Assembly: GCA_963764695.1 (NCBI GenBank)
Contig: CAVXTW010000015.1
Coordinates: 221,845-285,844, forward strand
Source of the DNA: an uncultured delta proteobacterium
GTDB lineage: Bacteria > Myxococcota_A > Polyangia > Haliangiales > Haliangiaceae
Direction: 5' to 3'
Length of the DNA stretch: 64,000 nucleotides
Each line of letters begins with the position of its first letter. Within the stretch, counting starts at the first letter, position 1. Below, piece by piece: positions 57,545-64,000 of this stretch. Made by a program: the position numbers and the translations under genes. The notes below the pieces were generated by a model, which ran no database searches, had not been told where the DNA came from, and saw only the letters and a program-made list of their open reading frames with translations.

Positions 57545-58543
57545 ATGCCATCGTACATTCGCGATTCGTCGATCGTTGCGATGGTCGGCGCATCGCCGGC
57601 GTTCCTCGCGGTACAGCGGCTCATCACGCGCATCGCGACATGCGATGCGTCGGTCCTGATCGAGGGGGAGACCGGGACCGGCAAGGAGCTCGCCGCGCGG
57701 GCCGTGCACTACCAGAGCGCGCGCGCCAGCGGGCCGTTCGTCCCGGTCAACTGTGGTGCCATCCCGGATAGCCTCCTGGAGAGCGAGCTGTTCGGCCACC
57801 GGCAAGGTGCGTTCACGGACGCCAAGGACAGCTCGCCGGGAATCCTGGCGCTCGCCGAGGGCGGCACCTTGCTGCTCGACGAGGTCGACGCTCTCTCGGC
57901 ACGCGCCCAGGTCGCGCTGCTGCGCTTCCTGCAGGAGCGCAAGATCCGCGCGCTGGGCGCCGGGCAGGAACGCAGCGTCGATGTCCGGGTGGTTGCGGCC
58001 TCGAATCGCAAGCTCGCCGCGCTCGCGGCGGTGGGGCATTTCCGGTCGGATTCGTTCTACCGGCTCAACGTGCTGTGTGTCGAGTTGCCACCGCTGCGCA
58101 GCCGCGGGACCGATGTCTTGCTGCTCGCGGACCGGATGCTTCGGGACCTGTCGCATCGCCATGACCGTCGGCAACCGGTCATCGACGAGCGCTCGAAGGC
58201 CTGGCTGTGCGCGCACTCCTGGCCGGGAAATGTGCGCGAGCTCGAGAATGTGATCGAGCGCGAGTTTCTTCTGTCGGAGTCCGCGGACACGCTGGACCTG
58301 CTGCAGGCCGGTTCGATGGTCGCGGGCGAGGCCGAGGAGCAGAGTCGCGGTCGCGAAGAGCAGAACTATCGCGCAGCGAAGGCACGCACCCTCGAGGCGT
58401 TCGACCGGCGATTTCTCGCGCGCCTGATGCGAGATGCTCGCGGCAACATCAGCGTGGCTGCGCGCCTTGCAGGCAAGGAGCGCCGCGAGCTGGGTCGCAT
58501 GCTCCGCAAGTACGAGATCCACCCGAGCGACTTTCGAACCTGA
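57545..58543 (+). CDS. Sigma-54-dependent transcriptional activator (enhancer-binding protein) with only AAA+ and Fis-type HTH domains (PspF-like, no receiver/sensor domain)
   Basis: Walker A GETGTGKE, GAFTDA (GAFTGA variant), ESELFGH, C-terminal HTH. Alternative start at 57581. Confidence 0.85.
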   Translation: MPSYIRDSSIVAMVGASPAFLAVQRLITRIATCDASVLIEGETGTGKELAARAVHYQSARASGPFVPVNCGAIPDSLLESELFGHRQGAFTDAKDSSPGILALAEGGTLLLDEVDALSARAQVALLRFLQERKIRALGAGQERSVDVRVVAASNRKLAALAAVGHFRSDSFYRLNVLCVELPPLRSRGTDVLLLADRMLRDLSHRHDRRQPVIDERSKAWLCAHSWPGNVRELENVIEREFLLSESADTLDLLQAGSMVAGEAEEQSRGREEQNYRAAKARTLEAFDRRFLARLMRDARGNISVAARLAGKERRELGRMLRKYEIHPSDFRT

Positions 58544-58761
58544 GCTACCTCGGGCCGGTCTCTCGCCGCCGGCCCATCGCCGGGTGATCGCGCACGCCTC
58601 ACCGGGGAACGCTGCACCCACCCGGTAGCGGCGGGATCCCGCGCGTCCCCTTCGTCAAGGGATGCGCGCAACGGCACCCGTGGGTGAAACGTCACCCGGC
58701 ATAGCACAGGCCACGGCTCACAACCCGTCGCGAACGTTCGCGCGCCAGGACCGCATCGCGC

Positions 58762-58777
58762 TGGCACAACGGCTGCA
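58762..58777 (+). promoter_or_regulatory. Candidate sigma-54 (-24/-12) promoter: TGGCAC-N6-TGCA
   Basis: ctGGcacaacggctGCaa, with GG at 58763-64 and GC at 58775-76 (correct 10-nt spacing), ~45 nt upstream of the ATG at 58824 and directly downstream of the sigma-54 EBP gene. Confidence 0.45.
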
Positions 58778-58823
58778 ACCCGGCCTTCGCCACGAACGAC
58801 GGTTCAATAGCAGACAGAGCGGC

Positions 58824-61490: not shown

Positions 61491-62425
61491 TCCGTCACCT
61501 CGATCAGCTCCTGCGCGACCTCTTCGTCACGAAGATGGCGGAGCTCGGTGACGAGTCCCAGGTCGGTTTCCGGCCGCCCGACGACGACTGGATCGCCTAC
61601 GTGAATTCCCTGACCGTGGCCGGCGCCCCGGCGAATGCGCTCAACGTGTATCTCATCGAGCTGCGCGAGAACCGCGCGCTCCGCTCGAACGAGGTCCTGC
61701 GCGTGGTCAACGGCGGCGCCGTCAGCGAGACACAGGCGCCCATGCGCCTCGACTGCCACTACCTCATCACCGCGTGGAGTCCGGCGTCGGTCACGCCCGC
61801 GCTCGAGCCGGCCTGGGACGAGCACGCGCTCCTCTACGACGCTGCCGCGGTGCTGGCCCTTCACGATCCGATCGTCCCCGAGGAGATCTACGGCCCGTCC
61901 GGTCTGGGCGCTTGGCCCAGCGGCTTTCCGGAGGCGCTCGAGGAGGCCGAGTTGCCGATCGCCTTCGTCCCGATGGAGGGCTTCCCGAAGTACGCCGAGT
62001 TCTGGGGCACCATGGGGACGGCCCACCGCTGGCGGCCGGCGATCCACCTGGCCGTCACCTTGCCGATCATCCGGGCCGAGCGGAGCGCGGGCACGGAGGT
62101 CACCACGCGCATCCTCGACATGCGTATCGGCGATCCCGCGGCGCCGGCCGGCCTCAGCGCCCGGATCGGTGGCCACGTCCGCAATGCCCTTGCGCCCCAC
62201 GCCGACGGCAGTCCGTCACTCGTCGCGGAGGCCTGGGTCATTCTCGAGACGCCGGCCGGCAAGCGCATGGCCCTCGTCCGCACCGACGCCCAGGGCCGCT
62301 TTCAGCTCGGCGAACTGCAGCCGGGTGCCTACCGCCTGCGCGCCCGCACCATCGGGCACGCGGATGTCGTCCTCGACGTGGGCGTACCGACGGAGACCGG
62401 CGAGTACGACCTCATCTTCGAGTAG
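61487..62425 (+). CDS. DUF4255 protein (Afp16/Pvc16-like tail tube terminator/cap) with a C-terminal carboxypeptidase-regulatory-like domain
   Basis: GTG start overlapping the ATPase stop (GTGA). N-terminus MIRHLDQLLRDLF...VYLIELRENRALRSNEV...MRLDCHYLITAWS matches the DUF4255 consensus. C-terminus TDAQGRFQLGELQPGAYRLRA. Confidence 0.75.
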   Translation: MIRHLDQLLRDLFVTKMAELGDESQVGFRPPDDDWIAYVNSLTVAGAPANALNVYLIELRENRALRSNEVLRVVNGGAVSETQAPMRLDCHYLITAWSPASVTPALEPAWDEHALLYDAAAVLALHDPIVPEEIYGPSGLGAWPSGFPEALEEAELPIAFVPMEGFPKYAEFWGTMGTAHRWRPAIHLAVTLPIIRAERSAGTEVTTRILDMRIGDPAAPAGLSARIGGHVRNALAPHADGSPSLVAEAWVILETPAGKRMALVRTDAQGRFQLGELQPGAYRLRARTIGHADVVLDVGVPTETGEYDLIFE

Positions 62426-62456
62426 CAGACCAATCCCTTCCGATCGGAGCTGGCCG

Positions 62457-64000
62457 ATGGCCGTGCAAGTCTCTTATCCCGGCGTCTACATCGAGGAGTT
62501 CACCCCCGGCGCACCCATCGCCGGAGTCGGCACCAGCACCGCGGCCTTCATCGGCGTGGCATCCATGGGCGAGCTGGACACGCCGACCAAGATCACCAGC
62601 TGGGAGAGCTTCAAGCAGATCTACGGGGCCTATCCGGTGCCGGGCTACTACCTCTGGTACGCAGTCCGCGGCTTCTTCGAGAACGGGGGCCAGGTCTGTT
62701 ACGTGGTGCGGGCGAGCAACGGGTCGTATGGCTCGTTGAATCCTCGCGACCCGCTCCGGGGCCCCTGTGATCGAGGTCCGCGCGCGCCAGCCGGGCAGCC
62801 AGGCCATCGAGGTGGTGGTGACCGGGAAGACCCCGCTCCTCAAGGATGACCTGCAGCTGTATCGGCCGACCGGCCAGTTCGTCACCATCGCGGGGCGCGA
62901 GATCACGATGGCCGCGGGGGGGTCTCCGCCCTTTGCCGAGACCGTGGCCGCCCGCTTCCGGCCCGGCGACTGGATCACCATCGGCGAGGGCGGAGAGCGC
63001 ATTCAGCTCCTGCGTGTCAGCGGTGCCGCTCTCCGACTGGGCAGCGATCTGATCGGCACCTACAACGCGGGATCCGACGAAGTGCGCCTGGCCGACGCCC
63101 CGGCCGGCCAGCAGACGCTCCGCCTGCAGTACGCGCCTGGCTCGGTGTGGAGCGCAGTGCCGGCGGGTTTGCTCACGCAAGGGACCGTGCTCACCGTCGA
63201 CCCCGACGGAGTGAAAGAGGCCCACGTCGTCGAGTTGGTGCAGGCCGAGTACCTGCCCGAGGGGATCACATACCGCGTGACCTTCCGCGACGGGCTGTAT
63301 GCGGCCCTCGGCCTCGGTCTTGAGGTGAAAGCGCAGACGGAGGCCTTCGATCTGATCGTGTCCCTCGGAACCAGCACCCAGACCTACGCCGACCTGTCGG
63401 TCGACTCGGCTCACGCGCGCTACTTCATGGATGTCGTCAACGGCGATGCGGCGAGCCTGGTGTCCGTGTCGCTGGTGGAGCCACCGCCGGCCGTGCGCCT
63501 CCCCGACGCCATGCCGGGCGACCTCGATGTCCAGCCGCGATCACGGTGGGGGACGTCGAGGACCTCACGACCCTCGGCGACGTCGACTTCATCGATGCGC
63601 TCGAGACGCTGGAAGCCGTGGACGACGTGAACCTGGTCGCCTGCCCGGACTCGTCGAAGACCGCGGTGCAGCAGGCGGTCATCCAGCACTGCGAGCTCCT
63701 GGCCGATCGCTTCGCCGTGCTCGACGCACAGCCGGGCCTCGAGCTCTACAGCACCGGCAAGGCTGACAGCATCGAGGAGCAGCGGCAGACCCTCGATTCG
63801 ACCCGCGGGCTATGGCGGGCTCTACTACCCGTGGCTGCGCGTGCGCCCGACCGGATCGGGCGATCCGGTGCTGGTGCCGCCGTCCGGGCACATCTGCGGC
63901 ATCATCGCGCGCTCCGACAACAGCCGCGGTGTGCACAAGGCGCCCGCCAACGAGATCGTGAACGGTGCGCTCGGCGTCGAGCGCTCGATGAGCAACATCG
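62457..64000 (+). CDS. Contractile phage-tail / eCIS sheath protein (Afp2-4/gp18-like), partial; runs off the right edge and has 3 or more frameshifts
   Basis: N-terminus MAVQVSYPGVYIEEFTPGAPIAGVGTSTAAFIG...FFENGGQVCYVVR. The later conserved sheath block ..LYYPWLRV..VPPSGHICGIIARSDNSRGVHKAPANE.. lies in a different frame. Frame changes at ~62750, ~63540 and ~63800. Confidence 0.8.

Follow-up and report, generated by a model that had tools for sequence, protein, structure and literature searches.

A predicted sigma-54 activator cassette at the head of a contractile-injection-system locus in an uncultured myxobacterial lineage

The phage-tail-like particles Afp of Serratia and PVC of Photorhabdus are encoded by clusters in which the genes of the ATPase and of the cap are located at the 3' end. 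The activator PspF is composed of an AAA+ core and a helix-turn-helix (HTH) without sensor domain, and pspA, the first gene of its sigma-54 operon, feeds back on it. In type VI secretion systems (T6SS), VasH of Vibrio cholerae is an example of an enhancer-binding protein (EBP) encoded in the cluster of a contractile machine. Some T6SS clusters are known to be controlled by sigma-54 together with EBPs that they encode themselves (Bernard et al. 2011, as cited in PMC6653060), and the regulators named for extracellular contractile injection systems (eCIS) by Geller et al. (2021, PMC8213781) are of the RfaH, GerE/LuxR and BTAD types. Here we describe the last part of a 64,000-nucleotide stretch (the window; contig CAVXTW010000015.1 of assembly GCA_963764695.1, G+C content about 70%) from an uncultured delta proteobacterium of the Haliangiaceae. 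From position 57545 to the end of the window, all the credible genes are carried by the plus strand. This region probably represents the regulatory head and the first structural genes of a contractile injection system (CIS) of lineage-II type in a Kofleriaceae-like Myxococcota genome, and this system would be switched by an EBP and sigma-54. Its features are the following.

57545-58543, plus strand: sensor-less sigma-54 EBP of 332 amino acids (Sigma54_activat, AAA_lid_14, weak HTH_8)
58582-58597, no strand assigned: distal putative EBP site GGGTGATCGCGCACGC (GGGTS-N6-SACCC with one mismatch)
58682-58697, no strand assigned: proximal putative EBP site GGGTGAAACGTCACCC (exact palindrome)
58762-58777, plus strand: candidate sigma-54 -24/-12 promoter TGGCACaacggCTGCA (motif match and placement conserved in relatives)
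58824-59042, plus strand: stand-alone winged-helix protein of 72 amino acids, first gene past the promoter (family profile and AlphaFold model)
59043-59371, no strand assigned: spacer of 329 nt without coding signal (coding scores of all frames)
59372-61490, plus strand: Afp15-type AAA+ ATPase with one frame break (PF22977 and AAA)
61487-62425, plus strand: Afp16-like tube/sheath terminator, or cap (Pvc16_N, also named DUF4255, and CarboxypepD_reg)
62457-64000, plus strand, running off the window: contractile sheath gene with three frame changes (Phage_sheath_1 on the joined frames)

The EBP displays the Pfam domains Sigma54_activat (2e-60, profile positions 1-167 of 168, starting from residue 13) and AAA_lid_14 (2e-16). 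Its open frame extends upstream by at most 19 codons and a gap of 211 nt separates it from the preceding open reading frame (ORF), which is glucose-6-phosphate-dehydrogenase-like, so that no room is left for a sensor domain. On this point the preliminary description of the sequence, which had placed an EBP lacking any sensor just upstream of the structural genes, is borne out. The same description termed the EBP PspF-like. The domain architecture is indeed that of PspF, but the scores against the PspF models are far below their cut-offs (229.7 bits versus 443.55 for TIGR02974 and 202.5 versus 529 for PRK11608); the EBP is not a PspF orthologue, and it reaches none of the NCBIfam equivalog cut-offs. 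Database look-ups for the exact sequences of the EBP and of the cap gave no match.

Relatives of the EBP were collected in a metagenome scan that yielded 80 loci (L020-L099). The EBP and its CIS-linked relatives have in common the signature GA[F/Y]TDA and the C-terminal motif GNV[ST].AAR.AGKERR.LG, and this clade co-occurs with -24/-12 sites. The Walker A motif is usually located about 30-50 residues from the start of the protein, and most members of the clade are thus sensor-less; a few have an N-terminal extension of about 150 amino acids. In the loci L020-L042, where the identity to the EBP is at least about 47%, the small winged-helix gene and/or CIS genes are found just downstream in 17 of the 19 informative loci (those with enough downstream DNA), and the locus L043 contains the small gene only, with no CIS genes. 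Of the 24 best EBP relatives (L020-L043), 20 have a homologue of the small gene after the EBP gene. Among the weaker relatives (L044-L099), neither the small gene nor CIS genes were found downstream in any of the 56 loci. EBP homologues with 44-50% identity are also located directly before an Afp15-type ATPase in the Burkholderiales Ramlibacter, Rhizobacter and Ralstonia (L003, L007 and L018).

The candidate promoter TGGCACaacggCTGCA has one mismatch to TGGCAC-N5-TTGCW. Its GC dinucleotide is at 58775-58776, exactly where the preliminary description had placed it, and the predicted transcription start is near 58788. In 15 of 21 loci, the 200 nt preceding the small gene contain the motif GGCA[CT]N6TGC, whose background frequency is 0.065 occurrence per kb per strand. 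When TGGTAT or GGGCAC is allowed at the -24 position and further loci are added, the element is found as TGGYAY-N5-NTGC in about 24 of the 26 modules with a small gene (those of the window and of 25 related loci). The consensus across these modules is TGGCAYG-N4-(T/G)TGC. The support for a sigma-54 promoter comes from this position being conserved in the related loci and not from the match in the window.

Upstream of the promoters, we have detected the 16-bp palindrome GGGT[CG]-N6-[CG]ACCC, which has 33 exact occurrences in the 1.25 Mb of fetched DNA. Eighteen of them lie within 300 nt upstream of the promoters, corresponding to an enrichment of about 120-fold, and most of the others are located just after EBP genes; conversely, most small-gene modules carry GGGTS-N6-SACCC palindromes. 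In the window and in L035, L041, L102, L022, L024 and L025, the proximal palindrome is centred at a fixed distance of 70-72 nt from the -24 element (72 nt in the window), on its upstream side. The distal site GGGTGATCGCGCACGC precedes the -24 element by about 172 nt and the proximal copy by approximately 100 nt, and distal sites are found at 158-178 nt in L022, L024, L025 and L032. This layout is the classic enhancer arrangement for a sigma-54 activator, and we consider the palindromes as putative EBP sites. With the conserved EBP clade, the palindromes, the -24/-12 element and the small gene, the control by an EBP and sigma-54 that had been suggested from the window sequence is better supported than before.

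Two sets of loci display variants of this organization. In the Burkholderiales loci L003 (2270-2330), L007 (790-880) and L012 (4420-4480), GGACA-N5/6-TGTCC repeats replace GGGTS-N6-SACCC before the sigma-54 site, and the EBP of L003 has a divergent HTH motif; this suggests that the activator and its predicted binding site may co-vary in the Burkholderiales cassettes. The metagenomic CIS cluster L101 contains two copies of the module (9808-10285 and 12052-12642), one after the EBP gene and the other inside the cluster, both with the identical palindrome GGGTCAGTTGTGACCC, a -24/-12 site of the TGGCATACAA type and a small winged-helix gene.

A search with the 72-residue protein as single query recovered only one near-identical match, and a profile built from 18 locus-derived homologues was needed to detect its family. 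The latter comprises 586 proteins (E <= 1e-3); no Pfam domain is present in any of the 120 best listed, and those named in their source are almost all "hypothetical". For the protein of the window, nothing credible was found in Pfam or NCBIfam; a match to TetR_C_41 (E 0.0098, below the cut-off) was discounted as noise. The AlphaFold model (pLDDT 83) shows a canonical winged helix, which superposes on the DNA-binding domains of Fur and Zur with TM scores of 0.80-0.88, root-mean-square deviations of 1.6-2.3 Å and 18-25% identity, and there are also weak sequence matches. The resemblance is restricted to the DNA-binding domain: the dimerisation/metal-binding domain is absent, and the protein falls outside the Fur family. 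Of six members that were looked up independently, five head CIS clusters, four of them with an adjacent EBP gene. As judged from the model, the 72-residue protein is a stand-alone winged-helix factor, and it is always the first product of the putative sigma-54 operon.

The gene identities and the motifs are thus conserved and co-located across loci. Concerning the functioning of the cassette, we infer that the sensor-less AAA+ activator would bind the palindromes GGGTS-N6-SACCC at 58682 and 58582 through its C-terminal HTH, contact the sigma-54 RNA polymerase at TGGCAC-N5-CTGCA (58762-58777) and open the promoter using ATP. Transcription starting from about 58788 would cover the small winged-helix gene and, after read-through of the 329-nt spacer, the genes of the ATPase, the cap and the sheath and the remaining cluster. 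Since the activator is sensor-less, the signal would have to act on the amount of activator or through a partner protein, and the small Fur-like protein suggests itself as a feedback or co-regulatory partner. This first gene could play a role like that of PspA, a parallel in logic only, the winged-helix protein being unrelated to PspA.

The EBP could instead be a mere neighbour that regulates something else, the -24/-12 match being due to chance in a genome with 70% of G+C. In the window alone, three sigma-54 matches with at most one mismatch are found where 1.0 is expected, and 8 of 100 shuffled sequences reach three matches, which is not significant. In the supplementary tables of Geller et al. 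(2021), Sigma54_activat is moreover a marginally enriched "shell" domain of the eCIS (49 genes, odds ratio 1.59, corrected p 0.04). However, the EBP clade, the palindrome, the promoter and the small gene precede CIS genes in the same order and with the same spacing in more than 20 independent loci, and the cassette is absent from the 56 loci with generic EBPs. We consider a chance association as very improbable.

Besides the non-significant match in the window, several observations weigh against the reading of the region as a CIS locus controlled by the EBP and sigma-54. The C-terminal Fis-type HTH of the EBP is detected by HTH_8 only below the cut-off (E 0.0066, 16.6 bits versus 22). The loop that contacts sigma-54 is GAFTDA where the canonical sequence is GAFTGA, the F and T being kept and the second G replaced by D. 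One member of the small winged-helix family, in L100 (10001-10225, E 3e-19), has genes of housekeeping type around it, and neither an EBP nor a CIS gene is present within 10 kb; the family is consequently not exclusively linked to CIS. In the CIS locus P0082 and in L012, the small gene has no adjacent EBP gene. Furthermore, the window stops inside the sheath gene, and the genes of the tube, baseplate and spike would lie past position 64000. The spacer and the frame breaks, considered below, count on the same side.

In none of its frames does the spacer 59043-59371 show a coding signal, and the relatives have no such spacer. A longer N-terminus of the ATPase or an additional gene in this interval was rejected, no frame having a positive coding score; from the coding score, the ATPase probably starts at the GTG codon at 59372. 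Given this spacer, the structural genes may have their own promoter. In such a two-step cascade, the EBP and the sigma-54 promoter would drive only the small gene, and the structural genes would be transcribed from a separate promoter in the spacer, perhaps under the control of the small protein. Beyond the fact that the spacer is unique to the window, it contains a sigma-54-like site, TGGTCCgcgagTTGCT (59306-59321), and a near-palindrome, GCGTCACGCGCGACCC (59183-59198), which resembles the EBP palindrome; the small protein has a DNA-binding fold and L101 holds two small-gene modules in one cluster. However, the sigma-54-like site is weak, with 8 of the 11 specified bases, and the scan of 57300-59500 revealed no sigma-70-like promoter or terminator beyond chance, the sole terminator-like hairpin (59368-59389, over the proposed ATPase start) being within chance expectation. 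The small gene directly adjoins or overlaps the CIS gene that comes after it in most relatives, which speaks for a co-transcription of the small gene and the CIS genes there. For these reasons we regard the cascade as an unlikely though serious alternative, and we retain a single sigma-54 promoter for the whole locus as the more probable arrangement.

The structural genes were identified with hidden Markov models (HMMs). The ATPase is composed of the winged-helix N-domain PF22977 followed by one AAA module (8e-31 in Pfam) of the Cdc48/p97 type; it shares 43-77% identity with its relatives, in which the same PF22977 and AAA architecture adjoins Pvc16_N. The GTG start of the cap gene overlaps the stop of the ATPase gene (GTGA). 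The cap contains Pvc16_N (8e-25, 88 bits versus a cut-off of 27) and a C-terminal CarboxypepD_reg beta-sandwich, and its sole solved relative is Afp16 (6rap_E, E 0.003). It is 79% identical to a homologue on a contig from a Kofleriaceae metagenome-assembled genome (L001) and 41-48% identical to those of 18 other loci; three actinobacterial genomes were also recovered with this query. The fusion of the cap with CarboxypepD_reg is full-length in nearly all of the 19 recovered loci, which belong to several phyla (observed in the window and in L002-L019). For the sheath, approximately the first 515 of roughly 680 codons are in the window, and the joined frames match Phage_sheath_1 with 46.5 bits (cut-off 31.4), the match spanning the third frame change.

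The succession on one strand of an EBP, a promoter candidate, a 72-residue protein, an ATPase, a cap and a sheath, as first proposed, is thus confirmed, the EBP and the structural genes by the Pfam HMMs: Sigma54_activat, AAA and Pvc16_N/DUF4255 match directly and Phage_sheath_1 passes its cut-off once the frames are joined. The motifs YPGVYIEE and YYPWLRV, which had been read as sheath signatures, are situated in different frames and do not belong to one continuous ORF. These domain assignments support the view that the region is the 5' end of a CIS locus. As injection-system genes, they are ordinary representatives of a known kind.

The closest solved relatives of the sheath are 8bky (1e-44) and 8bl4 (8e-42), which represent CIS-Sc of Streptomyces coelicolor (Casu et al. 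2023, PMC10066040), 8bky being the sheath of this cytoplasmic CIS. Pvc2 (5e-15) and Afp2 (1e-9) are far more distant, which places the sheath outside the Afp/PVC lineage (lineage I). The locus has in common with Afp and PVC the Afp15-type ATPase, the Afp16/DUF4255 cap and the sheath (table in PMC6899500). These similarities argue for the start of a non-Afp/PVC, lineage-II-like CIS, of which the mode (extracellular, cytoplasmic or anchored) is not readable from the sequence. Of the earlier assignment to an Afp/PVC-like eCIS, the presence of a CIS locus with ATPase, cap and sheath stands, but not the affinity to Afp/PVC. The locus also differs from CIS-Sc: the host is a Gram-negative Myxococcota, the sheath has a large additional insertion (about 680 amino acids in the relatives versus 534) and the cap is fused to a CarboxypepD_reg domain. 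To our knowledge, the proposed control of a CIS by a sigma-54 EBP has no counterpart in Streptomyces, which are not known to possess sigma-54.

In the loci recovered with the cap, the cap and sheath genes are followed by gp19-type tubes. The domains Phage_T4_gp19, CIS_tube, Phage_GPD, Phage_base_V and eCIS_core/DUF4157 were found downstream in the relatives, and the N-termini of ORFs located further downstream look, by eye, like LysM-type, VgrG-type, PAAR and gp25 proteins. The position of the ATPase and the cap at the 5' end differs from the order in Afp and PVC. The order ATPase-cap-sheath had been considered as a telling feature, a view that does not hold among the relatives: the ATPase and the cap genes are 3-6 kb apart in Burkholderiales loci, and elsewhere the ATPase gene comes after those of the sheath and the cap. 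In L020 (1994-2640), L021 (1614-2300), L102 (779-1363) and L104 (10339-10935), the small gene is followed by a short DUF4255/Pvc16_N gene and not by an ATPase gene. With such a gene after the small gene in the closest relatives, the cassette heads clusters of differing gene order. As a tentative extension, the GAFTDA EBP, the paired palindromes, the sigma-54 promoter and the Fur-like gene might together constitute a portable master switch, attached repeatedly to different lineage-II CIS clusters in Myxococcota, Beta- and Gammaproteobacteria and probably Desulfuromonadales. Within such a switch, the small protein would either gate an otherwise constitutive activator, as an anti- or co-activator, or be a second-tier regulator of the structural genes.

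In the sequence as given, the ATPase and sheath genes are not intact ORFs, the former having one frame break and the latter three, and this is a further point against a functional locus under sigma-54 control. The break of the ATPase gene is near 59770-59795 and divides PF22977 between two frames (profile positions 99-155 and 156-220). The sheath gene alternates between two frames, with changes near 62750, 63535 and 63808. All four breaks are single-base insertions or deletions (indels), and the restored frames contain no in-frame stop. The clearest case is an extra G in CGCGG[G]CTATGG, the removal of which restores ...DSTRGYGGLYYPWLRV, in agreement with the relatives.

These breaks could be real mutations, in which case the locus would be a decaying remnant unable to yield a functional particle, irrespective of the promoter. 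They are grouped, with one in the ATPase gene and three in the sheath gene within 4.6 kb, a density above the rough estimate for the remaining window, and some of them are located outside long homopolymers. That estimate comes from a codon-usage Viterbi walk, adopted in place of a GC3 (G+C at third codon positions) frame plot that was too noisy for counting frameshifts; the walk mixes true gene boundaries with frameshifts and its window-wide counts are approximate. Decay is opposed by the nature of the breaks, which are only single-base indels with zero nonsense substitutions, and by the restored proteins, which align with their relatives along the entire stretch present, at an identity equal to that of the intact neighbouring genes. 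In L001, the closest relative, a single frame runs across the position of the first sheath break.

Similar breaks are present in unrelated genes of the minus strand. In the TonB-dependent receptor gene (18032-20989), the plug and the barrel are in different frames, and in the M36 peptidase/PKD gene (47004-51888), the profile positions 42-170 and 174-368 are in different frames. Indels thus also affect the window far from the CIS locus, and these two genes make an assembly error likelier than decay. Programmed frameshifting was rejected as a cause, unrelated genes being broken similarly and one break being a plain extra G. We thus favour, with fair confidence, indel errors of the assembly as the origin of the four breaks, and we regard real decay as possible but rather doubtful.

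The cassette formed by the EBP, the palindromes, the promoter and the small gene is recurrent before CIS genes in numerous environmental bacteria and is undescribed in the literature that was searched. A full-text search for papers pairing CIS with sigma-54 or enhancer-binding proteins found only T6SS or unrelated papers, a 2023 review on eCIS does not mention sigma-54, and the word "sigma" occurs nowhere in the main text of PMC8213781. Traces of the cassette are nevertheless present in the supplement of this article, where Leptothrix cholodnii has the succession Lcho_3032 (EBP), Lcho_3033 (71 amino acids) and Lcho_3034 (afp16), and Pelobacter propionicus the pair Ppro_0378 (EBP) and Ppro_0379 (74 amino acids). 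The preliminary description had called the arrangement unusual for an eCIS; it is on the contrary recurrent across loci, and Sigma54_activat is already listed in that supplement. The sigma-54 EBP itself differs from the RfaH, GerE/LuxR and BTAD regulators named there. Its predicted logic is similar to that of the T6SS, where an EBP encoded at the cluster of a contractile machine activates the sigma-54 promoters of this cluster. In contrast to the canonical T6SS, the machine has an Afp16-type cap and an Afp15-type ATPase; the EBP belongs to a different clade, with a GAFTDA loop and mostly no N-terminal domain, and the cassette includes in addition a conserved small winged-helix gene, which is the first of the operon, together with a defined palindrome upstream.

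Elsewhere in the window, an S-adenosylhomocysteine (SAH) riboswitch (Rfam RF01057) is located at 29661-29736 on the minus strand, with 44.3 bits for a gathering score of 37. No tRNA gene was found across the entire window.

How CIS other than the T6SS are switched on is poorly understood, and most clusters are silent in culture, which limits both their study and their use for protein delivery. The notable part of the locus is its regulatory head, which has a practical value for the activation of silent clusters. The cassette offers a direct handle, with one activator gene, a recognisable predicted site of 16 bp and a sigma-54 promoter, and overexpression of the sensor-less EBP should turn the cluster on, be it in the native host or in a chassis proficient for sigma-54. 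Several hundred small proteins of an unannotated family gain a context as CIS-associated winged-helix factors. From the conservation of the cassette, the control by sigma-54 and EBPs, known for some T6SS clusters, would be extended to the superfamily of phage-tail-like CIS.

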